64,000 nucleotides of DNA from a virus. The stretch lies in IMG/VR virus record IMGVR_UViG_3300036770_001342, positions 42,894 to 106,893 of that record, one strand, 5' to 3'. The stretch's first letter is position 1. Each line of letters starts with the position of its first letter. The notes below the pieces were generated by a model. That model made no database searches, was not told the origin of the DNA, and worked only from the letters and a program-made list of their open reading frames with translations. The position numbers and the translations under genes are program-made. Below are positions 17,801 through 40,837 of the stretch, piece after piece.

Positions 17801-20800
17801 GTGCTCCGGGCACAGTTTGTCCGGTAGTTAAACCTACGATACCAGGATTACCTGTTAATAAATTTTGATTGAGTTTAAATTCTATAAAGTTGTTATTAAG
17901 AACACCGCCAAATGTACCGGACATGATTGCCCAGTTTTCATAGATGTTATAATCTATACCACCTTGAGGTAAGTTTGCGCCTTTAAACACACTCAATGCT
18001 GAACGAGTACCTTTTTCTTTAATAAAGTTTTTATAAACATTTACTTGAGTAATGTCAGTTAAATCTGCGCTTGCCATGTAAGGTCTTGATCTAAAACCAA
18101 TCAAACTAAACGCTACTTGATCACCATCTTCTTCTAAATTTGCTTCATTGGTATTATAATACAATGCGCTTTCGTAACTGCGTGTACTACTATTTGGTAA
18201 CAGTCCCTTTTGTATTTCGTTATAATCTGTCTCTTTCCATTCAGTTTCTTTAAATTCTTTACTTGGTTGAACTATTGTTAATGCTGTAAAATACTTGTTT
18301 TTAAATTTGACAATAGCACCCTTAGTATATTTTGTATTCTCGCGCCATTCTTCAATATTATCTTGGTTATAAATGAAACCACTAGCAAACATAGTACCGT
18401 TCCATTCGGCACTCTTAGTACCTTGCAGGAATATACGATTTTGCTTTAAGCCAGATATTAAGTTATAAACAACATCACCGAATATAGTAGTATTATCAAA
18501 AACTATACCATGTTCGATATTACTTAAATTAAATTGTCCATACGCAATACTATCACCTACGTTTAATGCAGACACACTAAACAAAGTACCATCTCTTACT
18601 ATTGATAAGTCTTTTGATTCTATAGGATATAAGTTTTGATTTAATACAAAGTTTGTTTGTCTAAATGTTAGTGGTTGGACAATTTGACTTTCCTTGTCAA
18701 CAACTAACGTATTTGCAGCAGGGTTAAGTGTAACAATGCTCCCTACACTCCAACCTACTTGAGTCCAATATAAGAATTCTGCAACCATCTGTTCCCAATT
18801 AATTTCAAGACCAGATTCAATGATATCAAATTTGGCTCCTATAGACTTCAAATAAGCACCATAACTCATTAAAAACTGTGAAACTTCTTGTGCTGTATAA
18901 AATACTGTGCCGTATGGTATTAATTTAACTGTGCTAGAATAATCATCAGCAACTTTTACAGTTTGATCTTCTACTGTAATAGTTTTACTGTTTGAATTAA
19001 TAACAGGTGATAAAGTTTTAAAGTAGTTAGTAGTTTGACTATTACCAAATATTTTATAGCCTTCTGATGTAAGTTGTACAATTACTGCGCTATAAACTAG
19101 TTTATCATATGGTTGATTTTCATATAACAATATCTGATAACTTTCATCAGGAATCAATAGTGATGAATTTTGAGATCCGGGTGTTCCTTTTTCAACAAAA
19201 AACTTCAACAATGTTTTGTCACTAAAACCTGCAAGACGATATACTAATCTTACATCTAAGTTAGTTAATAAGTTTTTAATATTTGTAGTAGCATCAACGC
19301 CTAATTGTTTTTCGTAATCTACGATCCAATTAATGTAACTAGTTTTTGCGGTGCCATTACCATAAATTTGTACATCTTGAGGAACTAAATGATTTCTGTC
19401 GTCAATTAAAAATTGATTAAATTCTTGATTGTATTTGTAGTTGTCAATGTCTACGCCTAAATTGAAGAAATTAGCAGGCTTCAATAATGCTTGCAAACGC
19501 ATTAAATCATATGGCCAAGTTGAACTACGACGATAACTAAATTCAACCGGTCCTACATCTCCTATAGTCCAATCGCGCTGGAATGTGTTTGGATTATAAT
19601 TACCTACTAATGCGAATAATGGATTAATTAATTCACCTTGATCATTTACAGGTAAAATGTTTAATAAACCCGGACGCTTATAGATTTCGATCTCAATAGG
19701 ATCGCCGTTATTCCAGTCAAGACCATTTTCCATATCTTGCCATAATATTAAGTTATCGCTAGTATATGGGGCAGGACCATAACGTGTTTCCCACCATGCT
19801 GGCTTGTTAGCATAACCTATCATTTGCCAAGGAGTAGCGTTAGGTGTACTTGTATCGAAATAATACAAATATATACCGCGCCAGTTACCCTGCTGTACTA
19901 TTGTTTTGTTTAACTTATCTCTGCTATTAGTATAATTGTATGTGTACTCGTTGGTGCTCAAATACAATTGAGTTTTATAGTCTAATCTGTTTTGTCCTAC
20001 CCAATCTAAAAATGTTGCGCTGTACATGTTTAACCATTCATCATAGTTAACAGTAGAACTTCTAAAATAACCCGGAATAATATCTGCTGCTTGAATTGGA
20101 ATAGTGTTGCTTAATTTTAAGTTATTGTAAACTCTAGTTTCAAATTCTAGTAATACTTGATCTCTATAATCAATTAATCCCAATACAGGATCATAATTTC
20201 CATATAGTTTTGTGTAGGAACCGTCGTGACCAACAATAAAATAAGTTGGTTGATTATATGAATTATCTAATACTACTTCTGGTACGCTTGCAGGATACAA
20301 ACCTAATTTAGTAGGAGTATTAGGTATGTAACTTCCATAAGTCTGATTATACTCTTTAATAATAATCTTATCGCCATTAATCAAATCTTTTGTTACAATT
20401 AATGAAGGAGTATCAGTGCTTATAGTATAGTCAATATTCTTAATTAATTGTTTAGTTACAGTAGTACCTTGCAGTTTAGTTTCCAAATATACTAATACAC
20501 CATCATAATTGGCTGTAGTAAAATTATAAATTTTGCTTAGTGGGAACGTGGTTGTGTCAATATTATTAAAGAACGTATAGGTGTTAGTTATAAACGCTGC
20601 CTTATTTGGTATCATGTCTGACCAAAAGAAAGGCATCTCTTGATTTTTTACGCTTGTAATTTCGTCTAACGCTTCATCTAATAATGCTGATGGATTGTAT
20701 CTTTGTTGCCAATCGATTTTGTTAGCGGTTTCTACTAATAAATTTTTAAATTTTATATATTCTCTGCTATTATACAATAATGAGTCAAATAAACTATGTT

Positions 20801-23800
20801 CCGCTTGACGTAAAAATGCTCCAGGCAATACTAAACTTGCACTGTTTTGAATAATTCTGTTTCCCCATGGAATAATATTACCTAAATCTCTAGTATTGTT
20901 TGCACCAAATACTTGACCTGTTGTATTTGGGTTGTTGTAGAAAATACTCTGATAATGACCACGAATATCACCGATGTCAACTGTTGTTACATCAGAATTG
21001 AATGGGTTGTTACTTAAATTGATAGGTATAGAATAATAAGCATTCTGACTGGTTTGATTGCTTAAAAGTGCAACTTGAATAACTGTTTCAAACAGTGCAG
21101 GAATCTGCACTGTTACATTTGTGAAATTACTACCGTGTTCTACGGTATAGTCTGTATCAATAGTTAAAATATTATTGTTATTGTAAACTTCAATGCTTGG
21201 CCAAATTGTATTTTCGACGTTAAGTTGCGCTATATCACAGTTGACTGTATAAAAAATAGTATCGCCTTCAGCAAACTCAATAGTAGTATCAGGAGTATAT
21301 TTAAATTCAAATATTTGATATTGTACGCTAGGGGCAACAGCCGTTTGCCAACCAATCAATCTTTCAAAATCTGTTCTACTAGTTACATTGTAAACGTATC
21401 CAGTATTAACTTTTTGAGTTTCGGTAACATTTTGTTGTATACCAGTTACATAATTAAACGTGTCTACGTTAAGAGCAACTTCAAACGTAATGTCGCCTAC
21501 ATTATTAATAGAACTATAACTAATTGGAAACCCTAAAATGCTATCATTGATACCTACGCCTGGTTTGTATCTTAATAAATCACAGCCAATAAATGTTGTA
21601 GATTCGTAAAACTCTTCGTTGCCAAAACTAATACCATTTTTATCGTAAACATCAAATTTTGGCGGTTGATTAATTGTTACTTTTTGTTGTGCTTGTATAA
21701 AGTTTTCGCCGTCGTAGTAAAAACTTGTACCCTGATAATTTTGACCACGCAATACAGCAAATTGATCGTTGGCAAGAATTTCGCCATCTAACGCTTCTGT
21801 TAGTGTGATGATTGGATATGATCCGCTAATTGTTTTACTATAGTTTGCAACATAAATTTTATTTTTAAGTAATGGAGTACTTTCATTTAAAAATACAATT
21901 CTTGCGCCTGGAAATAATAGTAAATCACTATTATTTTTACTATTAGCGACAAATGATATTTCTGGGCTTGTAAATGCAGGCGGAACAATTAAACTTGCAC
22001 TGCCCGGAATTATTGTAGGTAATGGGTAAAATACTGTTATGGTATACGTGCTTGTACCTTCAATAGACAAAATTCTAGTATTGGCAGGAAGTTGACTTTG
22101 ATTATAACGTATTTGATCATTGATATACATACCAACTGTCAAATTACCAACAACTTCATGTGCAGGTATTGTAATCGTAGTTGCTGTTAATGAAAGTGAA
22201 GTGCCGTTACCTTGAGTCGCTAATCCTGTACCTACTGCGGGAGCAGTAGCGACAAATGTTTCTCCTACGTATGGAGTAGGCGATGCTCCTATATTTTCCC
22301 ATAATGTAGTACCTAATTGTGTAATTGTATAGGGGATGCCTGCTATAATTTGATTTGAATTTATTTCGCCGGTACTTTGTGCTACAAACAATGTCTCTGC
22401 TGCCTGACCCCCGCCAGAACCTACAATTTCCCCCGAGTATGCGGCTGTAAAAATTGATCCTATGTTATATGTAACACCTATAGTACCTGCTATAGCGTTC
22501 CAATCAGTAGTACCTAATGATGTAATAACATATTCAATGCCCGGTACAAATTCACCCTCAACAAAAACTTTGACACCTAACGCTACCCAAGCAGCAGGTG
22601 CGGTAGTACCAATACTAGTAACTCTATATTGTTGTCCTATTAAAAATTGACCTTGTGTTACAGTTGGGCTTGCATTAATTGTTGCTAATGATGAATAATT
22701 TGTATATGTTTCAACGTCTGGATAATATGCTGCTTCTCCTGCTACAGCAGAAAATGCATCAGTTGTCCTTGTGTCTACAAAGTCTACGCTTGCTTTTGCA
22801 ACAGTACCGCTATTAAACAATTTTAAATTTGGATAAAACTCAAGTATAGGTCTTTTTGCTTTATTTGCAGAATTTGCAAATGTTGTTAAAATATTAGGGT
22901 CATCATTATATTCTGCTGTCGCTTTAATCACATCACTGTGGAACCAGCGGTTACTACGTGACCAAGCATTTCTATTAATGCTATTTCTTGCAATAGTAAT
23001 ATAATCTGGATTTTCAGGTATAAACAGTGCAGCATCAAAATTACCAATATCAAAATTTGTAGTATCATATGGTAATGATGTTTCTGTAGTAAAACTTTCT
23101 GGTACTACTAAAGTTTCTACAGGTATTAGTTCAATTGCTGTACCTACACCCTGAACGTAATATTGTCCAGACAAATAACTTGTTGGAATAACGTCGCCAT
23201 CAAATTCTACTTTAAGTCCATTAGTAAACACTACACCGTTAGTAGAAGTAAAATTCTTTTGACCTAATATTTGAGTGTTTACGTTTAATGTATTAAGCGA
23301 ATTACTTTCGATTAAACGTATTACCCCTACCTTGTTAGGATTTGTACCGTCTTGATAATATAATGTATCAAGCGGTGCTGAAATATATGGATATTGTTCT
23401 ATAAATCCATCTTGATTTTTAAAGAAATTTAATCCGACATAAGCAGTACCAAATTGAGCAGTAATTTTTTGTTCAGTTGGTATTAATCCACTTATTGCAG
23501 GAGTTAGTTTAATAACCGGATCGTTAATATCTCCTACATATGTAATTGTAAAGAAATAATCATTAACGTTGACATAAAATCCTTCTTCGTATAAACCTTC
23601 ATTTACTCTTACGGTCATTGATCCCGACGCTGCCGGTCCAGGAGTAAATGTGGGGCCATTTAGTGACTGGCTTATTGTAATAGTGCTGTTACTAGGATTG
23701 ATTGTTTTTACATAATAAATGAATGGATCATAACGTTTTACCTTACCTGTACCTGAAATAGGACCGGTTGATGTAAATATTTTTCCATCCTGTAAATCAT

Positions 23801-25212: not shown

Positions 25213-28200
25213 TTATGCTATTTGTAATTCGTTTGGTGTCAATGCAGGGATAACTAAAATATCGTTTGCTGTTGCTGCGTTAACAAATATTTCAAAAGGA
25301 GCACACTTAATTTCATATAGTGTTCCAAACGGTTCGTTTGGATCATTTGGAACTAATACTGCCGAACTAATTAAACTACCTAATTGATTGTGTAGGTAGG
25401 CGCTTAATTCTGAGAAGAAGAAGGTGTCTCCAAAACTCCAATTATTAATATCAAAATACTGGTTCATACTTGTTAATACTGCACTGCGTATTTCACTGTC
25501 ACTTGCTGTCGTTGTGTTGTTTTTAATAACTTTAATTGTTCCTCTTAAAGCCTGTGCTGCTTTAGGACCAAATAAAGGTTTAAACACTACACTATTTAAT
25601 ACCACACTATCACTCAACATTTTGTAATCATTTACTTTACTATAACTTGCTGACAACTCAGCAATAGTAGGTCTTGATGGTTCTGGTATTGTATTAGTAG
25701 TATCTTGAACATAATTTGAATAGGCTGTATAATATGCTTGAGTTACAACATATAAATCAACTATGTTTGTTGTAGCAGGATCAATACGTGTTGTGTTATT
25801 GCTATTGTGTCTGTATTGAAAACTAAAACCTTGTCTACCATACTTAATTGAATATTCTGGTTGAGGAGTTAATACATAGAAAGGTGTTCTAACTGTAGTG
25901 TCTTGAACAGTTTTATAAAAAATATCATCACTAAAAGCGTAGAACAGTTGACCCACAGGATAATCGTACTTTACTACTTCAATTTGATCCATTGTACCAT
26001 ATTGATAAATGACATCTACTGATGGAACAATTTCTAAACGTGTTAGATTTGCTGCATCCTGAACTGTTCTAAAAAATACATATTTTCCTATATTGCTACT
26101 ACCATTTTCAACACCTGTTAGTGTGCTGAAAAAATCTGGATTTAATATCAATTGTTTATTATTTGTGTCTGTTGCGCTGACTTCTACCTCAAAGTCATTT
26201 ACATAACCATCGCTTTCTACTGTTTGACCTAATATATTAACTTTGTAATCGCGCCCTAAAGCACTAGTAGAACTTGGTGCAGTATTAATACCTAAAACAT
26301 TAATGAAATCTTGTAGTATTTTACCGCTAAATGGATCGTACACAACTTGATTTAAATTGTATGTAAATCTAGTATCGCTAACACTTCCAAAATAATAACG
26401 TAATGAACGTACTAGTATTTGATATCTGCGATTACCTAAACTAGTAAATTGAACAAACCAATTATTATCATTATGTGGACGTATAGTCCATCTGTCCTGA
26501 TTAACTAGTAGTGAATTATTAAAGACCAAACTAAAATCTTGTTCTAATTCCATTTTAACAATGGCTTCTTGTATATTTGAAATACTAATTGAATTATCAA
26601 ATACAGGAATAATTTGTGATAGTAAACAACCACTAGGCACAAATCCATTTAATGTTACTGGTCCATTACCGTTACTAAAATTACCTTCACCATTATTACT
26701 ACCATCGCCTATTACATTTAATACAGTAGTCCAAAGCGTTGTTGGATTAGTGCCCGGCAAACCTAATACTAATCTATTATTATTATCAAAGTAATAACCA
26801 GTTGGAGCAGTAAATTGTAGCATTGCTCCTTTTGTAATATATTTGGTATTAGTAGTTGAGAAAATACCTATCTGTGTTGGTACTCTTATAGTTAAATCTA
26901 CATTATAAAAATAACCATTTTCACTTGTAGCATCTACTGTGCTTGTTTGCCAGTATACTGCTGAAGAGCCAGTGCTAGGTGTAGTAAATCTTTTGTACCA
27001 ACTACCTTCAGTAGTGCTTGTTTGATTTATATAATATTGATTAGCACGATTTAACGCTAATGTTCCGGCAAGTGTATCTGTAAAGAAATTGATGACATCA
27101 CTATTATTATTAATAGTTAAATCTAAAACAATATTATCATTGTTTTCCCAAATTGCACCGTCATCACCAAAACTGTTGATACTGCTATATTTGCCTGTTG
27201 GATCAAGCAAGTCTAAATTCTTTGATACACCAATCGAACTGCGATTGATCGCTTTTGATTTTATAATTGAACTGTATAATGTATATGGGAAATTATTATA
27301 ATCTTCACCATTAACCATACGATTCTGTGTATAGTAACGTGTTGGTGCGCGTTGTTTGATGCTCGGCAAACTTTCGCGTGATTGTGCATTGCTTACTGGT
27401 TGTGTTAACTGTAATCCTAAAGTTAATGTTTCAGCACGACCTTCTCTTGTAATATAAGTAAATGCAACTGTAATGCCTTGCATTTCATTTGGATCAATTG
27501 TATAAGTTAATCCGTTACTTGAACGAACATATGCTCTAAATGTTCCAACAGGAATGTTACTAAACACGCCGTCACCAAAATTATAAGTGACTTGATCATT
27601 AAATCTTGAACTTACACTAAAAATACTTTTTTGTGATGTTTCTGTTTGCAAATAAGCATTAGCATAAACATTGTCAACTTGATTCCATAATATGCGTGTG
27701 TTGTTATTTGCATTTAACTGATATAACCATGTATCTGTATTGTTTATGCCTTGAATATTAATAGGTACTGCTTGATTAGCAATTTGTTGTTCTAACACAA
27801 AATCAAAATTGTTTAATGAGCCCTGTTTAAAATAAAAGAAGTAACCAGTATTTGCACTACCAAAACCTAATCTGTCGTTTCTATACAACATATTAAATTT
27901 ACCAGTAGGTGCCGGTGGCAATTCATATAATGCATCGCTGTCTACACTGGATACACTTACTAATTCAAAATTCATGCTAATACCATCAACTGATGTGCTG
28001 AATGGTACTATTGGTAAACTGTTTGCAGGTATTTGTATTGCGTACTCTGCTGTTGCTACGCCTAATAAGTCGCTTACGTTGCCCGGTCTACCTACACGCT
28101 GACTACTAACTAAAGCAGCATTAATAATTGTATTATACTGTTCAAACCAATTTGGGTTTGCTGGGTCATTCCATAATATAATAGCATTACTTAAATTGAC

Positions 28201-28602
28201 ACCGTTAAAATCTGTTATGTTTTGTGTAGTTTGTATGCTGACTATTTTTAGCATACCTTCAGCACAGAGATTGCGTTTTGGTGTGTAACTGACTAGATTT
28301 GCTAGTTTGATAACGCTATCTCTACGCTCTGCTGTGTCGATAAAGTTCTCGCGGGCGTTTAAGTCATTTCTAAATGCAAGACCTTGACCCATGAATGCCA
28401 TAACGTCAAGTAGTGCGATAAATTCTGACGATTCGATATAATCGTTATATGTTTCTGGGTAGTAAACACGCAGGTAGTCTATGAAACTCTTGCGTAATGT
28501 TTCATAGTCATAACTTCTAAAGTCGGCTTCGCGGAAAGTCTGGTAGATTGTTTTCCAATCATTTACACCAAATAATGCCGCTTGTCTAGAACTTGTAGCC
28601 AT
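25213..28602 (-). CDS. gp6: Baseplate wedge subunit, T4 gp6-like
   Basis: SYDYETLRKSFIDYL...DYIESSE..ALLD...ENFIDTAERRDSV..LA..VSY.P; FGDG.F..IP.G; ES...IK..AP..Y.TQNRMV..EDY. Adjacent to gp25. Confidence 0.85.
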   Translation of the reverse strand: MATSSRQAALFGVNDWKTIYQTFREADFRSYDYETLRKSFIDYLRVYYPETYNDYIESSEFIALLDVMAFMGQGLAFRNDLNARENFIDTAERRDSVIKLANLVSYTPKRNLCAEGMLKIVSIQTTQNITDFNGVNLSNAIILWNDPANPNWFEQYNTIINAALVSSQRVGRPGNVSDLLGVATAEYAIQIPANSLPIVPFSTSVDGISMNFELVSVSSVDSDALYELPPAPTGKFNMLYRNDRLGFGSANTGYFFYFKQGSLNNFDFVLEQQIANQAVPINIQGINNTDTWLYQLNANNNTRILWNQVDNVYANAYLQTETSQKSIFSVSSRFNDQVTYNFGDGVFSNIPVGTFRAYVRSSNGLTYTIDPNEMQGITVAFTYITREGRAETLTLGLQLTQPVSNAQSRESLPSIKQRAPTRYYTQNRMVNGEDYNNFPYTLYSSIIKSKAINRSSIGVSKNLDLLDPTGKYSSINSFGDDGAIWENNDNIVLDLTINNNSDVINFFTDTLAGTLALNRANQYYINQTSTTEGSWYKRFTTPSTGSSAVYWQTSTVDATSENGYFYNVDLTIRVPTQIGIFSTTNTKYITKGAMLQFTAPTGYYFDNNNRLVLGLPGTNPTTLWTTVLNVIGDGSNNGEGNFSNGNGPVTLNGFVPSGCLLSQIIPVFDNSISISNIQEAIVKMELEQDFSLVFNNSLLVNQDRWTIRPHNDNNWFVQFTSLGNRRYQILVRSLRYYFGSVSDTRFTYNLNQVVYDPFSGKILQDFINVLGINTAPSSTSALGRDYKVNILGQTVESDGYVNDFEVEVSATDTNNKQLILNPDFFSTLTGVENGSSNIGKYVFFRTVQDAANLTRLEIVPSVDVIYQYGTMDQIEVVKYDYPVGQLFYAFSDDIFYKTVQDTTVRTPFYVLTPQPEYSIKYGRQGFSFQYRHNSNNTTRIDPATTNIVDLYVVTQAYYTAYSNYVQDTTNTIPEPSRPTIAELSASYSKVNDYKMLSDSVVLNSVVFKPLFGPKAAQALRGTIKVIKNNTTTASDSEIRSAVLTSMNQYFDINNWSFGDTFFFSELSAYLHNQLGSLISSAVLVPNDPNEPFGTLYEIKCAPFEIFVNAATANDILVIPALTPNELQIA

Positions 28603-28656: not shown

Positions 28657-29106
28657 TTAGGCTACACTAGCACTATTAGTATTTGCATCGAAAAATACAC
28701 TTAATAGTTCTGTTTGATTGAATGGAACTACGGATAATTCTATTTCCATTAATATGCCGTTTTGCTGCGGGTACGCATTGACATAATTAATCATAAGTCT
28801 CGGATCCTGACTGGCAATGCGTCTAATTTCAGTTTCTAATGCTAACTGTGTATCTTGAATGTTAGGGTCAAATACATATCCCCAAATAGTAGTACCGTAA
28901 TCAGGTTGACCTACTTTTTCACCCTGACGGATATTAAGTGCGTTTATTAAATCTTGTACTACCAAACGTTCGTCTGTTAAACGATATTTTTTACCTGCTA
29001 TTACTGGGGCAGTAATAGAGCCTACGCCTCCTTGATAACCAGTTTGCATATTGGTTGATCTAGGTTTATTGGCGTTAAGTGTGCTGAATCCTATATATTG
29101 TGGCAT
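28657..29106 (-). CDS. gp25: Baseplate wedge protein gp25-like (GPW/gp25 family)
   Basis: LVVQDLINALNIRQGEKVGQPDYGTTIWGYVFDP...IRRIASQDPRL is the gp25 family signature. Confidence 0.85.
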   Translation of the reverse strand: MPQYIGFSTLNANKPRSTNMQTGYQGGVGSITAPVIAGKKYRLTDERLVVQDLINALNIRQGEKVGQPDYGTTIWGYVFDPNIQDTQLALETEIRRIASQDPRLMINYVNAYPQQNGILMEIELSVVPFNQTELLSVFFDANTNSASVA

Positions 29107-30953: not shown

Positions 30954-32435
30954 TTATCCTCTACCTCTTGTAAGAGGACCTTTAGGTGCAGTAGGTAATT
31001 TATTACTTGCTGCTCCGCTTGTTTGTACATTAACACCCAATCCTGCCATATCCCATGGCGCATGTGCTGGTGCGCGACTAGTAATACTTTTAAGTTTATT
31101 TGGTGCAGCAGTCCAGCCTTTTGTATTATCAAACAATGTATCTGTATGTTGGGTTTGATCAATGACTGGTACAGTTTGTGGGTTGGTTGATGTTTTGCCG
31201 GAGTTTAAATTTACTCTGCTACCATTAACAAATGCTTTTGCACCACTAGCCATACTTATATCACCTTGACTATACATGCTGTATGGACCATCTGCTTTTA
31301 CTGTATGTGTGCCTGTAGTATACTGATTGAAGTTTGCTCCCGATCTTACTTTCATATCTTTTTTACTTTCAATCTGTATATTTTCTGCTTGTATATTAAG
31401 ATTTTTAGTGGCATGTATGTTTACGTTATTATCTGCGTGTAGGTTTAAATCACCCTGTGTTCTGACGTTTACGCTGTTTGTACTATAAACATCGACAGTT
31501 CCTTCTTTACCCAATTCAATATAACTTTGACCGTTAGCGTGTAGTATCATTAATGTTTGACCACTGTCGCTCATCATAATCTGATGCCCTAATGATGAAC
31601 GTATGCGTACTAAGTTATCTTTACCTGCTATGTCGCCGTCATCCATTACAATACTATGTCCACCGCGACGAGCAACAACTTTTAATTGTTTATTTTTTTC
31701 TTGTAGATTATCAACAACTGTTTCGTCATTGTAGCCGCCTTCATATATTGGACGTCCGGGTGTGCTTACACCAAATCCTACTCTGCTTATATTTTCACGT
31801 TGTGCGCTACTTGTAATAGGACCGCGAATAGGATCTCTAATAACACCCTGCTGCCACATAGTACTTGCTATCCAACTCTGTACAGGTTTTGCGGCAGTCA
31901 AATATTTTGTTGTGTTTGAATATTCAGGGTTATTAGAATTAATATTTGTTGTTGGCAATATAGGTGCATCACCATACTTTTGCGCTTCAGTAGGGTTAGG
32001 AACGATAGCATTAGTTGCGCCTATAGCCGGCACCATTTGTAGTGCATCTGCTTCAGGAATACATCCTATGTAAAACCCACTGTCCAATTGTCCATCAGCA
32101 AAAATACACAATACTTGTGTGCCCACATCCGGCGGACTAAACCACATGCCATAACTACTTGAGTTGCCTTTATATGTTCCTTCTCCTGAGTTAGGACTAG
32201 TTGCCCTAGTTAATCCATAAAAAGGACTTAAAAATTGTACCTTACGCCAATTGCGATAATCTTCGGGGTCGGTACCGCTGTTATCTAATAGATAAACTTC
32301 TAATGTTCCCATACGTTTAGGATCGCTATTGTTTTTAACGATACCTATTACAGGTGTTAATCTGGGGTTGGCACCACCACTGAACGGACTATTTCTTTTT
32401 GTAGGGCCTTTGGGTTTTTGTACGTCTTGTGCCAT
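30954..32435 (-). CDS. gp5: Baseplate hub spike protein gp5/VgrG-like
   Basis: N-terminal OB fold (GIVKNNSDPKRMGTLEV...GMWFSPPDVGTQVLCIF), GHSIVMDD...RIRSSLGHQI, and C-terminal beta-helix repeats. Confidence 0.85.
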   Translation of the reverse strand: MAQDVQKPKGPTKRNSPFSGGANPRLTPVIGIVKNNSDPKRMGTLEVYLLDNSGTDPEDYRNWRKVQFLSPFYGLTRATSPNSGEGTYKGNSSSYGMWFSPPDVGTQVLCIFADGQLDSGFYIGCIPEADALQMVPAIGATNAIVPNPTEAQKYGDAPILPTTNINSNNPEYSNTTKYLTAAKPVQSWIASTMWQQGVIRDPIRGPITSSAQRENISRVGFGVSTPGRPIYEGGYNDETVVDNLQEKNKQLKVVARRGGHSIVMDDGDIAGKDNLVRIRSSLGHQIMMSDSGQTLMILHANGQSYIELGKEGTVDVYSTNSVNVRTQGDLNLHADNNVNIHATKNLNIQAENIQIESKKDMKVRSGANFNQYTTGTHTVKADGPYSMYSQGDISMASGAKAFVNGSRVNLNSGKTSTNPQTVPVIDQTQHTDTLFDNTKGWTAAPNKLKSITSRAPAHAPWDMAGLGVNVQTSGAASNKLPTAPKGPLTRGRG

Positions 32436-32437
32436 GT

Positions 32438-34975
32438 TTATCCTTTAAATCTTCCTGTACGTATTAATTCAATTTCGTCAGGTACATATCCTAAATTAAA
32501 CAACTCTGCATCACTTAAACTATTTAAATCAGTAGGTTCTCTACCTTGGTTTTCTGTTTGCGGAGCATTGTCAGGTACTGGTTGAACGTTACTGTCATCG
32601 TCAGCCACTTGTCCTTTAGGAGTGGTAATAGTTTCTTGACTACTTTGCTGTGATGGTGCTGCTTGTGTAGCGGGTGATCCTTCTTGCGGAGCCTTAGCAG
32701 GTTTGCTACCCGGAAAAGTAGGACCTATCAAGTTTAACGTTTGTTCAAATCTACCATTTGCAAAAACACTATCAACTTCTGTTAACATATAAACGATGTT
32801 GTCTTTTGCTATCGCTTTAACATCATCTGGATATTCTATAAACAAAATATTTTGATTTATTTTTTGTAATCCTGTACCGTCGTTGTAATCTTTGCCTTCT
32901 TTAAAACTTACTTCTACAAATACTTGTCCACCTTGAGCGTTAACTGTAAAGCCATCGGTGTCGTAGAATTGGTCGTATAGTGAACTAAGTGATGAAACTC
33001 CATCACGTACTAAAAAGTCTGGATCTCCTAAAATTTTCATACGTCCAGAATAGTATGCACCTAAATCATTTAGATAAGTTACAATACTATTTTGTGCTTC
33101 TAGTCCTACACCCAATGATGAAGTTCTGTCTCCATTATTTCTTACACCGGTAGCGATAGGCATTATTCCGCCACCGGTTGCAGTACCTGCAGGGTTGTCA
33201 CCACCACCGCCGTCTGATCGCAACCCTGTATTACCTGATGATGCACCATTACCTCCGGTACCCGGACCAGAATTATTTGCAGGATTTTGTGCTTCTCTGC
33301 CGCCCGCACTTGTTTGACCGCCACTTCCAGCCGCGTTTACTGAAGGTCCTAATCCTAACACACTATTAAAATACAGATAGTTAAAATTAAAATTCATATC
33401 TAAAATTTCAGTATTTTGTCCTGTAAACCAATATTCATATCTTTTGTGAGGACCATAATACTTTTTACCTGCTATACCATATGGAGTTTCTATACTAGGT
33501 ACATCATACATTTGTATAACATAATTCATTTTATATACCCAGTCTCCTAATATTGGATCCCAATTTGCTTCAGTAATTTCTGGTTTAATGTTTACCCATC
33601 TAATAGGTGCAGGTTCTTTTTGAGTTTGTTCGTAATTTTTCTTTTCGACATCGGGTTCTTGGGCGTTAAGAAAAATAGTTTTTAATGCTTTTTCCATAAA
33701 CGTGCTGCGTTTAATGATTGTTTCTATCGCTGATATAATCGCAGTGTCTTGATTAAATTGAAACTCTCTTTCTGTGGGTTCCGCAGTTTTATAATTTTGT
33801 CCGTCAGTGGATTCACCGGTCGTAGTCGCAGTTGTTGATCCCCAACGATATTTTTTTAAATCGGCGTCTGAAACTAACGGTGCGTCCTTAATTAAAATTT
33901 CTGCATCGCCTAAATATGTAACTGTGTATTCGTTGGCAAATTTTTGACTTGGAGGATTTATTGTTGTTTTATCTTTTTCTATTTTGTTTAAATTTTTAAA
34001 CAATCCTAATTCGCCCATTAATGCGTCATGTACCGTTTTTCCTTTAACTTTATTTCCTTGAGGCATTCTACCACGTTTAATACCAAACAGTGCTTGACCA
34101 TTTACGCTTACAGCCTTACATTGATATTGTACTGCTCTGCCATTAATTTGAAATTTCATTTCACTAATTTGAATATCATAAAAATTTTCAAACAATGCAT
34201 CGCCACCTAATGGATCAATGGCGTTTCCATAACGTGCATCTGATCCTTTTACTAGTCTACCGTCTTGATCATATCCGTAAAAACGAATACCTAAAACAAA
34301 GAACTGTCTAAATGCATTAAACAATTGTTGATAGTCTGGTGTGCTACTATATGCTTTAAGTGCCTCACTGGCTCTTTTTAAATCACTTAAAAAACTAAAT
34401 CCATATGGCTCAGTAATAGTAAATGATAATTCTGATACTGCTGTTGCTGGCGCGCCGGTACTTTTTGTACTAGTAAGTGTTTTAAATCTTAAGTTATCTA
34501 TAAAATAATCTACCGGCTCATTTTGACTTGATGGGGGCATTCTTTGACTGTTTGAATTATTAATACCGCCGCTTTGTGCAACAATAAATGCTCCACCTGT
34601 TACAGGTTTTGAACCTTGCCCCACTGGAGTAGCGCGACTTAATGCATCAATTTTTTTTCTACCTGAAGCCACAAAAGCCTTATATGCGTCAGGAGTAATC
34701 ATATACAAACTAATATTGTAAGTGTAACTTGCTAGTTTACTTAACGGGTTGTTTAATCTACGACCGGGTCTGCCGGCTGCAGGAGTTGGTTCTGCAACTC
34801 TTTTACCTGTTACTACAACTTCTTCTAAATCGTCTTTGGTTGTTGAAATACCTATTTCTGGTATTCCATCTGCGCCTATAGTTGCTTCTTGACCTGGGTC
34901 TGTTGGTCCAAATCCATCTACTGCATTTTTCTTATTAGGATTACTATCATCGTTATCCAAATTTTCATTTGCCAT
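32438..34975 (-). CDS. Baseplate hub protein (gp27/gpD position), 845 aa
   Basis: Lies between gp53 and gp5. NPLSKLASYTYNISL, FTITEPYGFSF, MKILGDPDF and Y.LTEVDSVFANGRFEQTL are typical of contractile-tail hub proteins. Confidence 0.65.
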   Translation of the reverse strand: MANENLDNDDSNPNKKNAVDGFGPTDPGQEATIGADGIPEIGISTTKDDLEEVVVTGKRVAEPTPAAGRPGRRLNNPLSKLASYTYNISLYMITPDAYKAFVASGRKKIDALSRATPVGQGSKPVTGGAFIVAQSGGINNSNSQRMPPSSQNEPVDYFIDNLRFKTLTSTKSTGAPATAVSELSFTITEPYGFSFLSDLKRASEALKAYSSTPDYQQLFNAFRQFFVLGIRFYGYDQDGRLVKGSDARYGNAIDPLGGDALFENFYDIQISEMKFQINGRAVQYQCKAVSVNGQALFGIKRGRMPQGNKVKGKTVHDALMGELGLFKNLNKIEKDKTTINPPSQKFANEYTVTYLGDAEILIKDAPLVSDADLKKYRWGSTTATTTGESTDGQNYKTAEPTEREFQFNQDTAIISAIETIIKRSTFMEKALKTIFLNAQEPDVEKKNYEQTQKEPAPIRWVNIKPEITEANWDPILGDWVYKMNYVIQMYDVPSIETPYGIAGKKYYGPHKRYEYWFTGQNTEILDMNFNFNYLYFNSVLGLGPSVNAAGSGGQTSAGGREAQNPANNSGPGTGGNGASSGNTGLRSDGGGGDNPAGTATGGGIMPIATGVRNNGDRTSSLGVGLEAQNSIVTYLNDLGAYYSGRMKILGDPDFLVRDGVSSLSSLYDQFYDTDGFTVNAQGGQVFVEVSFKEGKDYNDGTGLQKINQNILFIEYPDDVKAIAKDNIVYMLTEVDSVFANGRFEQTLNLIGPTFPGSKPAKAPQEGSPATQAAPSQQSSQETITTPKGQVADDDSNVQPVPDNAPQTENQGREPTDLNSLSDAELFNLGYVPDEIELIRTGRFKG

Positions 34976-34976
34976 A

Positions 34977-35291
34977 TTAGATACCTAACACTTGTCTTAA
35001 TGTTTCCATTTTAGGTATGTATATTTGAACGCCGGTTACAAAATCAAAGTATGGATCAAAACCCAGTCTGTTAGGATTACGTGCAGCAAACACCCACCAC
35101 AATCTACCATCGCTATACAAGTCATACGCTAATAAATCAGGGCGATATTGATAGACTTCTGGTATGGTATAAAGAACATCGCTAGAGAAACTAGGTATAG
35201 GTCTATATACCATAAAGTCTAAGAACTTGTCATTAAAAATTCCTGTATCTTTATAAGGACTTGTTGATGGATATAAATTATTCTGTGCCAT
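34977..35291 (-). CDS. gp53: Baseplate wedge protein gp53-like (LysM-type)
   Basis: YQYRPDLLAYDLYSDGRLWWVFAARN...G.QIYIP is the gp53/LysM signature. Confidence 0.8.
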   Translation of the reverse strand: MAQNNLYPSTSPYKDTGIFNDKFLDFMVYRPIPSFSSDVLYTIPEVYQYRPDLLAYDLYSDGRLWWVFAARNPNRLGFDPYFDFVTGVQIYIPKMETLRQVLGI

Positions 35292-36979
35292 TACCAGTGA
35301 CCTGCTCCTTTTCTACCTTGTGCTCCGTAACCTCTTATTAAGTTACCGTTAGCATAATCTTTAAGACTAAACACGTTACTTGTTTCATAACGTGACATAA
35401 TAGGTACACAACTTATTTGTAAATTAATTTTAGTTGGTACATAAGTTACATTTTGTTCATTGACAAACGAACCCGGTTTAAATCCTGACTGTACCCAATC
35501 AGGTGCGGACAATGCACCGCCTGGTGTTAGATTTAAACCTATTGCATTACCTACTGCTGCTATACCTTGTGACAAACGCCCCTGAATGTAATCCTGTGCC
35601 ATTTGACCCCAACCTTTTTTGATGACAGGTTTATTTGGGATATTTGGTGTTCTTTTTCCTGTAATTGTAACTTCTTCTAGTCCGTCACTTTCAGGATTAG
35701 CACCTGCTCTAATATAATCAACATCTGATGGCAATACGTAATTAAAGTTTTGTATTGCTAATGGATGCGCATTGAATTGAAATTCTCCTAACCCATATAG
35801 AAAACACATTGGTGGAGGTGTGCCTGGTTTAGGATTTTGATCTTGACCATAAAACATTTTAGTTGCGCTTCTAAAAAAATGTATGACCGCTAATAGATAT
35901 CTTGCTTCTGTAGTGTCTTGCGCTGTAAATTCACAACCAATATTAATATTGTCTACATAACTATTTTCATATTGATAATATCTATAGTTGCTATGTGCAG
36001 GATCGCTTGGTTGATAATTTGCCCCATATGTAACTTGAATGTTTGGAGTGTATGGAAAAATTACTCCGTCAGTTGTTCTTAATGGTTCTAGTAATGTATT
36101 ACTGCTATCATTGTAAAGATATGTAGAGCCGGGTGACAATGCTAAACGCACTCTCCAATCTTTTCTTGCTTTAAAATTAGTAGATTCTCTTTGAGTTGTT
36201 TGATTACGTGCATTGTTGGTTGCGCCGGTCGTACTGTTTGGTCTACGTGCAGTAACTACAACCTCTTCTAATCCATCATCTTCTGGTAAATTAAAATTAG
36301 GAGCATCTACGTTGATAGGACCTGCTCCTATCATACCGGGTTCATCAACTACAAGGTTATCGCCAAAATTAATATTAGGTGCGGAAACATTTACATCTCC
36401 TGCAGTGCCAGGAATATTAGGGTCAGAAATTTCTAAATTGTTATTAAGTCTTGAGCCGGTTACTGTAACAGTAGGTAAGTTAGCATCGGGATCATCAATA
36501 TTTGTATTTGCCGGAAACTGAGCACCTGCTGTACCTGTACCCTGCGCATTTACAGGTATACTTGCGCCCGGACCTTTACCGGCACTACCGGGATCGCCAT
36601 TACCTGCATTATTTGTACTTTGTGTTGATTGTCTAGTTGCTTGCTGCGCTTTAGCATATGCGGCATTAACTTTAGTTACAATTGGTTCTAAACGTTGAGC
36701 CAAACTTGTAAATTGATTCAACAATGCTCTTGCTTGATCTGCTTGCGCTTTACAACCTGCTCTAGTTGCTTGTTCTATAAATTGTGTAAGATAGGTCACT
36801 ACTATTTGTGCTTGACCTAAATCTACGTTAACAGCATTTGATATGCTGCTTAGTGAGGGTATATCAGTAGGTAATGTTCCAGACCCGCGACTAATACTTT
36901 GATTTCCTCTACTTAAGTAACTAGTAAAGTCACTACGTTGTTGATCTAATTCTTTTTGAAAATCTGCACAAGTTGCCAT
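35291..36979 (-). CDS. Tail tube initiator / baseplate-tube junction protein (gp48/gp54-like) with long N-terminal extension
   Basis: GVIFPYTPNI...HSNY...FTAQ...EARYLLAVIHFFRSATKMFYG...PPP...YG...P..I..F...LP.DVDY...VPT is a tube-fold initiator pattern. Upstream of gp53. Confidence 0.65.
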   Translation of the reverse strand: MATCADFQKELDQQRSDFTSYLSRGNQSISRGSGTLPTDIPSLSSISNAVNVDLGQAQIVVTYLTQFIEQATRAGCKAQADQARALLNQFTSLAQRLEPIVTKVNAAYAKAQQATRQSTQSTNNAGNGDPGSAGKGPGASIPVNAQGTGTAGAQFPANTNIDDPDANLPTVTVTGSRLNNNLEISDPNIPGTAGDVNVSAPNINFGDNLVVDEPGMIGAGPINVDAPNFNLPEDDGLEEVVVTARRPNSTTGATNNARNQTTQRESTNFKARKDWRVRLALSPGSTYLYNDSSNTLLEPLRTTDGVIFPYTPNIQVTYGANYQPSDPAHSNYRYYQYENSYVDNINIGCEFTAQDTTEARYLLAVIHFFRSATKMFYGQDQNPKPGTPPPMCFLYGLGEFQFNAHPLAIQNFNYVLPSDVDYIRAGANPESDGLEEVTITGKRTPNIPNKPVIKKGWGQMAQDYIQGRLSQGIAAVGNAIGLNLTPGGALSAPDWVQSGFKPGSFVNEQNVTYVPTKINLQISCVPIMSRYETSNVFSLKDYANGNLIRGYGAQGRKGAGHW

Positions 36980-37063: not shown

Positions 37064-37092
37064 TTGACATTCATCGTCGGGCGTTGTATCAT
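37064..37092 (+). promoter_or_regulatory. Sigma70-type promoter TTGACA-N17-TATCAT for the late sigma gene
   Basis: Perfect -35, 17-nt spacer, 5/6 -10. Followed by GAGG RBS and ATG at 37120. Confidence 0.8.
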
Positions 37093-37119
37093 TTTTACAA
37101 CACAATTATAAGAGGAAAC

Positions 37120-38016
37120 ATGTCTACAGCAAAAAAACCAGTAAACTATCTAAACAATAAGGATATCTTAAAAGAGATACATGCAAGCAAAACCAGTTTT
37201 TGCAGTTTTTCAAGACAAGAGTATCATCAGTACGATCTAATCATAGATACTCCACAAAACACATTAGAAAAAAGCCTAGCATTAATTTCAAAGCCTAAAA
37301 ATATTAAGGCTGCTAGAGAAGCAAGAGCAGCAAGAATTCTAGTTCAGACCGGACAAGAAGTAAAACTAAAGGACATTCCAGTAACCGATCTAGTCTTTCG
37401 TGTCATGACTTGGGATCATATTCCAGTTAGCCCAAAACAACCACGTAAGGTTGTCAAGAAAAAGACTGCTAAAGACATATTAGAATTTGATGACATAGAT
37501 GACGAAAATCTATTTGAAGATTTAGAGATTGAAGAGACCAAAGATGATGTAGATGACATGGTTCATGTCAAGGTCAACTTCCCTCCTTTTCAACACTATA
37601 AGTTAGACGAAAACAATTCAGCCGTGTGTGTTGGCAAGAGTCATTGGAAAGGTGGTGTCAAGACTGGTGAGTTCAGTAAAGATCATGGTAAGATCACTGA
37701 TAAGTTAGCACGTATGTTTATCATGCTTTGCGAAAAGTATGCCATGAAATTCAACTGGCGCGGTTATACTTACAATGATGAAATGCGTAACAGTGCCATT
37801 CTTCAATTGACATATGTTGGACTGCGTTTCAACGAGGCTAAATCAGCAAATCCATTCGCATACTACACAGCCGCTATCACAAATAGTTTCTGTCGTGTAT
37901 TGAATACCGAAAAGCGTAATCAAAACATTCGTGATGATATTTTAGAAATGAATGGATTGAACCCAAGTTATACACGCCAAATGCGTGATCAGAAGTTTAA
38001 CGTTTACGAAGAATAA
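37120..38016 (+). CDS. gp55: Late-transcription sigma factor, T4 gp55-like
   Basis: NYLNNKD...; L..M...L...YA.K.NWRGYTYNDEM...AI.....FN..KS.NPFAYYT....NSF.R....EK..Q.I matches gp55. Upstream of gp47/46 as in T4. Start moved to 37120 on RBS and promoter evidence. Confidence 0.8.
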   Translation: MSTAKKPVNYLNNKDILKEIHASKTSFCSFSRQEYHQYDLIIDTPQNTLEKSLALISKPKNIKAAREARAARILVQTGQEVKLKDIPVTDLVFRVMTWDHIPVSPKQPRKVVKKKTAKDILEFDDIDDENLFEDLEIEETKDDVDDMVHVKVNFPPFQHYKLDENNSAVCVGKSHWKGGVKTGEFSKDHGKITDKLARMFIMLCEKYAMKFNWRGYTYNDEMRNSAILQLTYVGLRFNEAKSANPFAYYTAAITNSFCRVLNTEKRNQNIRDDILEMNGLNPSYTRQMRDQKFNVYEE

Positions 38017-38060: not shown

Positions 38061-39077
38061 ATGGCAAATTTATTTAAAAAAGCAGCAGCCTTCACCGACA
38101 TACATTTTGGACTTAAGAGCAACAGTCTTGAACATAATCAAGACTGTAGCGATTTTGTTGATTGGTTCATAGAAACTGCTAAAGCAGAGGGATGTGAAAC
38201 TTGTCTTTTCTTAGGTGATTACAATCACCATCGTGCAAGTATCAATATCCATACTATGCAATATGGCTTACGTGCCCTTGAAAAACTAAACGATGCATTT
38301 GAGAAAGTGTATTTCATTCCAGGCAATCACGATCTTTATTATCGTGATCGTAGAGATATTCATAGTGTAGAGTGGGCAAAGCATTTGCCTAATGTACATA
38401 TTGTCAATGACTGGTTTAATGAGGGCGATGTTGTTATTGCTCCTTGGTTAGTAGGAGATGATTATAAGAAGTTAGCCAAGATGCATGGCAAGTATATGTT
38501 TGGTCATCTTGAACTTCCACGATTTTATATGAACGCCATGGTTGAAATGCCTGATCATGGTGAAATTAATGACGAACACGTTAGTGGTTTTGAACAAGTG
38601 TTCAGCGGCCATTTTCATAAACGTCAAGCACGTAAAAACATTTGGTACATGGGCAATGCTTTCCCACATAACTATGCTGACGCAAGTGATGATGCTAGAG
38701 GCATGATGATACTTGAATGGGGTTGTGACCCAGTATTCAAGTCATGGCCACAACAACCTGTATTCAGAGTTTACAAACTAAGTGATGTACTAGAAAATCC
38801 AGAGGGTTTGCTATTGCCTCAAGCAAGTGTTAGAGTACATCTTGATATTGATATTAGTTACGAAGAAGCAAACTACATCAAAGAAACATTGATACCAAAA
38901 CATCAACTACGCGAAATGTCATTGATACCAATCAAACTAGAACAACATCAATTGGATCTTGCTCCGGGTGAGTTGAAATTTGAAAGTGTTGATCAGATAA
39001 TAACCGATCAAATCAGCAACATCGAAAGTCAATTTTATGATCCTAAAATGTTGTTAGAGATTTATAGGAATTTATGA
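38061..39077 (+). CDS. gp47: Recombination endonuclease subunit (Mre11/SbcD-like), T4 gp47
   Basis: Metallophosphoesterase motifs DIH, LGD, GNHD, GHL, GHFH. Confidence 0.9.
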   Translation: MANLFKKAAAFTDIHFGLKSNSLEHNQDCSDFVDWFIETAKAEGCETCLFLGDYNHHRASINIHTMQYGLRALEKLNDAFEKVYFIPGNHDLYYRDRRDIHSVEWAKHLPNVHIVNDWFNEGDVVIAPWLVGDDYKKLAKMHGKYMFGHLELPRFYMNAMVEMPDHGEINDEHVSGFEQVFSGHFHKRQARKNIWYMGNAFPHNYADASDDARGMMILEWGCDPVFKSWPQQPVFRVYKLSDVLENPEGLLLPQASVRVHLDIDISYEEANYIKETLIPKHQLREMSLIPIKLEQHQLDLAPGELKFESVDQIITDQISNIESQFYDPKMLLEIYRNL

Positions 39078-40837
39078 TAGTACTAAAGAATATTACATTA
39101 CGAAACTTTTTGAGTATTGGTCAAGTTACACAGGCTGTAAACTTTGATAGCAAAGAACTCACATTGATTCTTGGTGAGAACCTTGATCTTGGTGGTGATG
39201 GCGCACGTAATGGTACTGGCAAGACTACACTAATTCAAGGTCTTTCATATGTACTATTCGGTACACCAATCAACAACATTCGTAAAGATAATCTAGTCAA
39301 TCGAACAAATGGAAAGAGTATGATGGTTACGCTAGAGTTTAGCGTAAACGGTGTTGACTACAAAATCGAACGTGGTCGCAAGCCAAACATACTCAAGTTT
39401 TATGTAGATAATAAAGAAGAAGAATGTGTCAACGATGCTCAAGGTGAAAACAAAGAAACACAAGAGCATATTGAACGTGCCATAAACATGACACCCGACA
39501 TGTTCAAACATATCGTTGCATTGAATACTTATAGCGAACCATTTTTGGCTATGAAAGCCAATGATCAGCGTAATGTTATTGAACAGTTACTTGGCATTAC
39601 GTTACTAAGTGAAAAAGCAGACCTCATCAAAGAACAAATCAAAAGTACAAAAGATAAAATTACCGAAGAAGAATATAAAAACAAAGCAATCGAAGAAGCA
39701 AATAAACGTATACAAGAACAAATTGATAATCTAAAGCGTAGAGCAAAGTTATGGGATAGTAAACACGATGAAGATTTACAAAAACTACGTGATGATTTAG
39801 AGGAACTACAAAAGATTGATATTGATCTTGAGTTGCAAGGTCATAAAGACTTTACCCTTTATAATCAGCGGAAAAAAGATCACGCAGACTTAGATAAAAG
39901 TATCAATAGAACCGAAGAAGATATTGCTAAAGAAGAAAAATCACTAAAGAAAATTGTAAAAGAATTAGAACAACTACAAGACCACAAGTGTTATGCTTGT
40001 GGTCAAGATTTCCATGATGAAAAACATACTTCAGTATTAAAAGAAAAAGAAAAGTCAAAGAAAGAGTGCGAAAAGAACATCAAGGAATATAGTGAATTAT
40101 TAGTAGAACTAAAGAAAACAAAAGAAGAATTAGGCCCTATCGGCAAGCAACCTAAACTATATTACGATACGGAACAAGAGGCGTTCCAGCATCGTAGTTT
40201 AGTTGATGGTTTAGTGAAGTCGATAGACGAAAAAACCAACGATGTGAACCCGTATAACGATCAAATAAGTGAAATGGAAAACCAAGCACTTCAAACTATA
40301 AGTTTTGATAAAATCAACGAGTACACCAGACTTGTTGATCATCAAAAGTTCTTGCTTGACTTATTGACAAGCAAGGATAGTTTTGTGCGTAAGAAAATTA
40401 TCGACCAAAACCTCAGTTATCTCAACGCAAGACTCACACACTACTTGGACAAGATAGGTCTGCCTCATCAAGTTATATTTTTGAATGACCTATCGGTTGA
40501 GATAACTGAACTTGGACGCGAACTAGATTTTGACAATCTAAGTCGCGGTGAACGTAATAGATTGATTCTTGGCTTGAGTTTTGCTTTCCGTGATGTATGG
40601 GAAAGTTTGTATCGCCCAATCAATACATTGTTCATCGACGAATTGATTGACAGTGGGTTAGATAGCATAGGTGTTGAAAATGCTATGGCCATATTGAAAG
40701 ATATGAGCCGCAATCGCAGTAAGAGTGTATGGCTTGTAAGCCATAGAGAAGAATTAGCAGGACGTGTACCTAGCGTATTGAAAGTAGTGAAAGAAAACGG
40801 ATTTACTACGTATAATACTAGCCACGATTTAGCATAA
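39074..40837 (+). CDS. gp46: Recombination ATPase subunit (Rad50/SbcC-like), T4 gp46
   Basis: NFLS, Walker A NGTGKTT, coiled coil with CYAC zinc hook, signature LSRGE, Walker B LFIDE, H-loop VSH. Confidence 0.92.
   Translation: MIVLKNITLRNFLSIGQVTQAVNFDSKELTLILGENLDLGGDGARNGTGKTTLIQGLSYVLFGTPINNIRKDNLVNRTNGKSMMVTLEFSVNGVDYKIERGRKPNILKFYVDNKEEECVNDAQGENKETQEHIERAINMTPDMFKHIVALNTYSEPFLAMKANDQRNVIEQLLGITLLSEKADLIKEQIKSTKDKITEEEYKNKAIEEANKRIQEQIDNLKRRAKLWDSKHDEDLQKLRDDLEELQKIDIDLELQGHKDFTLYNQRKKDHADLDKSINRTEEDIAKEEKSLKKIVKELEQLQDHKCYACGQDFHDEKHTSVLKEKEKSKKECEKNIKEYSELLVELKKTKEELGPIGKQPKLYYDTEQEAFQHRSLVDGLVKSIDEKTNDVNPYNDQISEMENQALQTISFDKINEYTRLVDHQKFLLDLLTSKDSFVRKKIIDQNLSYLNARLTHYLDKIGLPHQVIFLNDLSVEITELGRELDFDNLSRGERNRLILGLSFAFRDVWESLYRPINTLFIDELIDSGLDSIGVENAMAILKDMSRNRSKSVWLVSHREELAGRVPSVLKVVKENGFTTYNTSHDLA

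Follow-up and report, generated by a model that had tools for sequence, protein, structure and literature searches.

TonB-dependent outer-membrane transporters carry a Ton box. Beneath the outer membrane, the C-terminal domain of TonB binds this box by beta-strand addition, and ExbBD turns the proton-motive force into a pull. In a different phage type, the filamentous phages, the virion protein g3p binds TolA for entry. Hijacking of the Ton and Tol systems by phages and bacteriocins has been stated generally (PMC11658791, PMC12905483). In group B colicins and S-type pyocins, a disordered arm at the N-terminus bears a Ton box on which TonB pulls (PMC11658791, PMC12905483), and the tailed phages T1 and phi80 need TonB and an energised membrane for irreversible adsorption to FhuA (PMC11658791). 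Here we describe Ton-box-like peptides on two neighbouring baseplate proteins, a hub and a tube-initiator-like protein, of an uncultured giant lake phage. Both are encoded in the last 64 kb (hereafter the window) of the 106,893-bp IMG/VR record IMGVR_UViG_3300036770_001342.

The hub (P0001, 845 amino acids; 32438-34975, minus strand) contains the peptide LEEVVVTGKR in its disordered N-terminal head (residues 50-59; 34799-34828, minus strand). Three further copies lie in the tube-initiator-like protein, hereafter the tube protein (P0002, 562 amino acids; 35291-36979, minus strand), which matches PHROG 12050, 'virion structural protein', with E = 4e-45. Motif a, LPTVTVTGSR (residues 168-177; 36449-36478, minus strand), is a variant Ton-box-like copy in a disordered linker, and motif b, LEEVVVTARR (residues 237-246; 36242-36271, minus strand), is in the same linker directly before the fold. 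Motif c, LEEVTITGKR (residues 434-443; 35651-35680, minus strand), is found in a low-confidence insertion within the tube-like domain. Just upstream of the hub motif is a decayed fifth copy, IPEIGISTTK (residues 38-47 of the hub; 34835-34864, minus strand), at the place where the homologue P0132 has a full second motif. An example peptide of the phage motif is KDDLEEVVVTGKRVA.

An earlier note on this DNA had listed the four peptides, had noticed none in the other proteins of the window and had taken this to argue against chance. Translation of both genes and a six-frame scan bore out the four positions and sequences exactly. Across all six frames of the 106,893-bp contig, the strict pattern [LIVM][EDQ]E[IV]x[IV]T[GA]x[RK] was matched 3 times, each time in the hub or the tube protein, and in no other real open reading frame (ORF). 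The same note had proposed a comparison with shuffled sequences, and this gave a mean of 0.002 strict matches against the 3 observed (87 ORFs of at least 100 amino acids, 2000 shuffles), with at most 1 match in any of the 2000 shuffled sets. Chance is ruled out as the source of the copies. Their DNA has a mean column identity of 67%, and the copies differ from one another at synonymous and flanking positions, which argues against a recent DNA duplication.

Bacteroides Bt1763 has the Ton box 82-DEVVVTG-88, whose deletion or change to alanines abolishes function (PMC7782687), and TonB binding studies have used PDTLVVTANR as the Ton-box peptide of BtuB (PMC5413942). The phage motif has the acidic or polar start and the [LIV]-[VI]-V-T-[AG] core, often followed by x-[RK], by which Ton-box sequences are recognized, and EEVVVTG agrees with the Bt1763 box at six of seven residues. 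A search of 596 Gb of bacterial and archaeal genomes with the back-translated exact nonapeptide EEVVVTGKR returned 17 matching stretches, 14 of them in frame. Seven of the ten proteins scanned with Pfam are TonB-dependent transporters, with the start of the Plug domain at most about 35 residues after the motif; they are mostly from Bacteroidota and have a CarboxypepD_reg-like N-terminal domain, with others from Sulfuricella and an unclassified bacterium. Two further proteins share this layout or have a signal peptide immediately ahead of the motif. When 30 transporters from five of the EEVVVTGKR-bearing genomes were scanned with a profile of the phage copies, the best hit fell 10-17 residues before the start of Plug, where the Ton box lies, in 17 of the 30. 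Six hits scored at least 3.5 bits, all of them at the Ton-box position, versus 1 in 43,116 residues of other ORFs. A 15-column motif profile run against all PDB sequences gave chance hits only (HPr and cytochrome c, E ~1), the profile being too short. On the strength of the transporter comparisons, the phage peptides fall in the sequence class of the Ton box of TonB-dependent outer-membrane transporters and probably mimic it, and the resemblance first claimed in the note is upheld.

Separately, one protein with the peptide has another architecture: in a Bacteroidales protein (L087:358-2232, minus strand), a CarboxypepD_reg-like domain is followed by MEEVVVTGKR and then by vWF_A/VWA/YfbK_C, with no Plug. 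The peptide is thus not strictly limited to transporters.

The likeness to transporters extends to the setting of the motif, a flexible segment adjoining a folded plug-like domain. Unlike transporters, the phage carriers are virion proteins without a Plug or barrel domain (no Pfam match to Plug or TonB_dep_Rec was found in either); their chains hold up to three copies here and five in relatives, and the motif is found at either protein end or in an internal loop. The best functional analogy is with the group B colicins and S-type pyocins, which are likewise parasite proteins with their own Ton box on a disordered arm. Ton-box piracy by a parasite-borne box is already known from these bacteriocins; here it would take place at the tip of a contractile tail. 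As soluble toxins, the bacteriocins pass through a transporter, whereas the phage boxes are on the tube tip of a contractile tail, which can cross the outer membrane mechanically. Neither carrier has a Pfam or PHROG match to the receptor-binding or cytotoxic domains of these toxins. The arrangement proposed here would resemble g3p-TolA in that a virion protein engages a periplasmic Ton or Tol protein linked to the proton-motive force, although g3p uses the Tol system and a folded N1 domain and has no linear Ton-box motif. With T1 and phi80 the phage would share TonB dependence; no Ton box of their own was found reported for T1 or phi80 in the literature searched. Nor was a Ton box on any virion protein of a tailed phage, or the peptide string EEVVVT, found in that literature. 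If TonB is indeed the partner, no tailed phage was known before this one to have virion proteins with a Ton box of their own.

Structural models of both carriers were obtained with AlphaFold and searched with Foldseek. The model of the hub comprises a disordered head (residues 1-70) with a predicted local distance difference test (pLDDT) score of ~30, the hub fold, a Gly/Ser/Asn-rich disordered segment (residues 533-639) and a C-terminal tail. The hub fold matches VgrG, Mu gp44, T4 gp27 and the spikes of contractile injection systems (E from 1e-6 to 1e-3, probability 1.0), and, as modelled, the 845-residue protein is a baseplate hub of the gp27/VgrG type. The tube protein is predicted to consist of a confident helical bundle (residues 1-120), a disordered linker (121-271) and a tube-like fold (272-430 and 510-562) that is interrupted by a low-confidence insertion (431-509). 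Its best matches are baseplate initiators of cyanophage A-1(L), tube-baseplate proteins of Afp and PVC, and the T4 baseplate-tube complex, with E only ~3e-3, probability 0.97-1.0 and low template-modelling scores, which are low because half of the chain is disordered. The assignment is supported by the conserved synteny of the genes for the tube protein, gp53 and the hub. The earlier labels of hub and tube-initiator-like protein hold in these models, the second less firmly, and the 562-residue protein is a candidate gp48/gp54-type tube initiator. All four motifs are located in segments predicted to be disordered (hub 1-70; tube protein 121-271 and 431-462), where pLDDT is under 50 and secondary structure is not assigned, in keeping with the earlier statement that they lie outside the conserved folds. 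The two carriers resemble the T4 gp27-gp5 hub and the gp48/gp54 initiators in predicted fold and in gene neighbourhood (gp53, gp5-like spike, gp25 and the late sigma factor gp55), but differ in their long, disordered, motif-bearing heads, linkers and tails, which were not seen in the cultured relatives examined.

Several other features of the two proteins were noted. Within the variable disordered ends of the hub family are near-invariant acidic clusters, DNDD near the N-terminus and ADDDS in the C-terminal tail (34946-34957 and 32591-32605; residues D9, D10 and D793). Five hub homologues with 74-90% identity (P0124, P0125, P0127, P0129 and P0130) have an extra N-terminal domain of ~110 amino acids plus a linker, ~140 amino acids in total, and in these the motif comes after the extra domain; the domain is missing from the hub of the window (compare 34766-34975) and from P0126 and P0128. 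In the tube protein, the helical bundle (residues 1-120; 36620-36979) has near-invariant Cys4 and Cys76, and the whole domain is missing from Xanthomonas phage XaC1 and Vibrio phage 2.275.O.

The two carrier families are large, with 6622 and 695 proteins at E ≤1e-3 among the scored candidates, and motifs were counted in the best 120 homologues of each carrier (121 sequences each). The pattern D-x-L-[EQ]-E-V-x-V-T-G-x-[RK] is present in 60 of the 121 tube sequences, at 1-5 copies each, with 0 in the remainder, and some of the copies are tandem 14-residue units, for example NPDELEEVTVTGRR. At the place aligned with motif a, homologues read LQEFTVTG or LQEVxVTG, and motif c is kept in homologues down to ~50% identity and is gone from more distant ones. 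Among the hubs, 26 of 121 have the motif, at 1-3 copies, at a relative position of either 0.03-0.21 (N-terminal head) or 0.86-0.97 (C-terminal tail), and at both in 2 hubs. Diverged forms of the motif (for example VPEIVITADRP, IPEITITAKRP and GEVVITAKRP) occupy this place in more distant hubs.

A tree built from the hub fold alone requires at least 6 gains or losses of the motif. In a well-supported clade of 15 hubs that includes the protein of the window, all 15 have the motif, placed according to subclade in the C-terminal tail, at both ends or in the N-terminal head. Presence that is kept while position changes is the signature of a short linear motif independent of the fold. Both the observation itself and the status of the peptide as a linear motif are solid, and the motif behaves as one under selection. 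The same profile of phage copies was applied to 6156 six-frame ORFs of at least 60 amino acids from 160 related loci (2.25 Mb), and all 25 ORFs scoring at least 10 bits are homologues of the hub (17) or the tube protein (8). In a 100%-complete relative of 348.7 kb, the sole match is in the hub. The motif is in both proteins in 5 cases, in the tube protein only in 2, in the hub only in 11 and in neither in 94 (Fisher p = 6e-4, not corrected for phylogeny), showing that the hub and the tube protein tend to carry it together. A tandem-motif segment, searched by tblastn against 50,697 cultured-phage records, gave chance hits only; Aeromonas phiA8-29 orf_091 and a tail protein of Vibrio phi 3 were rejected as carriers, being such hits whose translations have no motif.

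Different short sequences are found in the corresponding segments of other lineages. The tube linkers of loci L006, L009, L011, L013, L014, L018, L049, L065 and L079 carry other short repeats, including NPETGE[TP]Y-like, ENVFDPTGN, DPNTNIG and ELGINTD repeats, and the tube linker looks like a general cassette for short motifs. Many motif-negative hubs (L011-L080, L113-L168) have another conserved head motif, approximately TTQAGK-x-GT-x-AA (as in AGTTQAGKSGTSAA and PTTQAGKAGTPAAK), which lies about as far before the fold as the Ton-box-like motif does, and L044 and L142 carry both. From its sequence and placement, this may be a second, alternative interaction motif.

We hypothesize that Ton-box-mimic motifs on the arms of the tube tip engage host TonB and thereby couple opening or anchoring of the tip to the proton-motive force, and we give this proposal about the same chance of being right as of being wrong. 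In T4-type tails, sheath contraction would drive the hub, the spike and the tube initiators, together with the tube tip, through the outer membrane. Disordered arms of 70-150 residues would then be exposed under the outer membrane, within reach of the C-terminal domain of TonB, and TonB or a TonB paralogue could bind the box by beta-strand addition, the way in which TonB engages transporters, group B colicins and pyocins. A pull by the ExbBD motor on the hub head might draw the hub-spike plug out of the tube, comparable to the action of TonB on the plug of a transporter; alternatively, a pull on the initiator arms might tether the tube tip or draw it toward the inner membrane. Either route would couple DNA delivery to an energised host. 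With a hub trimer and an initiator hexamer as in T4, a virion would carry an inferred ~21 boxes. Searches of the contig and of five relatives, the complete genome among them, found no gene for TonB_C or ExbB. Any TonB partner would therefore come from the host; a phage-encoded TonB or ExbB was considered and set aside on the same search. The fuller picture, in which a clade of giant freshwater myoviruses displays ~3-21 Ton-box copies and has the TonB-ExbBD of the host uncork the tube or reel the tip inward, is tentative and somewhat doubtful.

Little is understood of the way in which phages with contractile tails open the tube tip and pass through the periplasm and inner membrane, and the TonB proposal, if true, would supply a TonB-powered uncorking step for genome delivery. 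Binding of the motif to TonB would tie genome delivery to the energy state of the host and could be examined by a simple peptide-level assay. It would also explain why the linkers evolve like host-interaction modules, a description prompted by the different short motifs that other lineages carry at the same places. Were the proposal correct, the type of box could mark the type of host envelope and be read from the genomes of uncultured phages.

A number of observations weigh against engagement of TonB. Real Ton boxes score weakly with the phage profile (≤7.6 bits), owing to the greater uniformity of the phage motif compared with the boxes of hosts. In the 12 closest tube homologues, conservation is 0.61-0.66 in the motif columns versus 0.51-0.59 in the rest of the linker; given this modest contrast, the case for selection rests on recurrence, relocation and exclusivity. 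The motif is missing from many more distant homologues and from all of the cultured relatives examined: none was found in Sinorhizobium phage Phosso, Xanthomonas phage XaC1 or Vibrio phage 2.275.O, all of which infect TonB-bearing hosts. XaC1 and 2.275.O have no N-terminal linker, and Phosso has an N-terminal extension without the motif. Motif-free relatives, the cultured ones included, indicate that this type of baseplate does not need the motif. A host with TonB is assumed; the arms could sit in the lumen, in the baseplate interior or on the virion surface, and the tandem copies might instead build a beta structure among themselves. The earlier note had held that a motif unconserved among homologues whose linkers persist would speak against its proposal. 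This holds in part: many more distant homologues and the cultured relatives do have no motif, but their linkers also differ or are missing, and within the motif clade presence persists while position and copy number change. The TonB proposal is plausible, with its prospects about even.

The main alternative is a docking strand internal to the phage, a beta strand added to the edge of a tube-fold ring or to a wedge protein that tethers hub, initiator and tube during assembly, in which case the likeness to Ton boxes would be convergence on a good edge-strand sequence. Proteins of the tail-tube fold generally link subunits through extended arms and strand exchange, the two carriers are neighbours in the baseplate centre, both with tube-like domains, and the joint occurrence of the motif in the two proteins and its alternating V-x-V-T beta pattern would suit such a role. 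A fixed strand should, however, hold its position and number, whereas the copies range from 0 to 5 and the motif moves between head and tail within one hub clade, and many relatives with the same folds have none. The match to transporters also reaches past the strand into the TG-x-R tail, with identity over 9-10 residues, and AlphaFold leaves the motifs undocked on their own chains. We consider a docking strand unlikely.

An interaction with a different partner in the host envelope (a TolA-like or other TonB-family paralogue that has another role, the interior of a transporter barrel, in which unbound Ton boxes rest, or a periplasmic chaperone or protease) would let the motif serve adsorption or penetration without the Ton motor. 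The Ton box of apo Bt1763 is tucked in the barrel against the plug (PMC7782687), so that such sequences naturally bind at more than one site; TonB paralogues are numerous in Bacteroidota (PMC7782687), and the Bacteroidales vWF/YfbK-type protein carries the peptide without a Plug. Set against this, TonB is the only experimentally established partner for this class of sequence, and nothing in the present data points to any specific alternative; the idea is, in our judgement, improbable. That the motifs are functionless by-products of repeat expansion is highly unlikely: although the linkers are fast-evolving and repeat-prone (NPETGE[TP]Y, ENVFDPTG and DPNTNIG in other lineages) and some copies are tandem 14-residue units, the same 10-residue motif occurs at non-homologous positions in two unrelated proteins and in lineages down to ~40% identity, never appears in the other ~6000 ORFs of the related loci, and is kept as a peptide while synonymous sites differ between copies. 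A T4-type prohead-protease site (L-x-E) was also rejected by reasoning, as conservation spans V-x-V-T-G-x-R and the carriers are tail rather than head proteins.

The record has a CheckV completeness of 31%, implying a genome size of ~345 kb. Lake metagenomes are the source of the overwhelming majority of related contigs (the name of one includes 'TBL ... HYPO'), and jumbo myoviruses make up the distant cultured relatives, of the 121Q, Atu_ph07, PA5oct, XaC1, SCTP-2 and Phosso kind. PHROG and Pfam searches identified T4-core genes in the window, including those for a gp55-type late sigma factor (37084-38016) and gp47/gp46-type SbcCD (38061-40837). Between the two motif-bearing genes sits a gene for a gp53-like baseplate wedge protein of 104 amino acids (34977-35291, minus strand; Pfam Phage_gp53, E = 8e-6; PHROG 7145, E = 1e-21), and the order of the tube protein, gp53 and hub genes is kept in 80 of 80 IMG/VR loci. 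Directly downstream of the hub gene is that for a gp5-like central spike of 493 amino acids (30954-32435, minus strand), which matches PHROG 13211, 'baseplate hub subunit and tail lysozyme' (E = 2e-33), and, weakly, Phage_base_V/DUF2345. The genes for gp25 (28657-29106) and a baseplate protein of 1129 amino acids (25213-28602) are also present, and a single ORF of 6437 amino acids (5898-25211, minus strand) lies directly downstream of the latter in the same late operon. A relative of the phage, L062 (IMGVR_UViG_3300042997_002652, 266,967 bp), is typed as a 'provirus' by IMG/VR, and if its host flanks are real they could reveal the host of this phage group.

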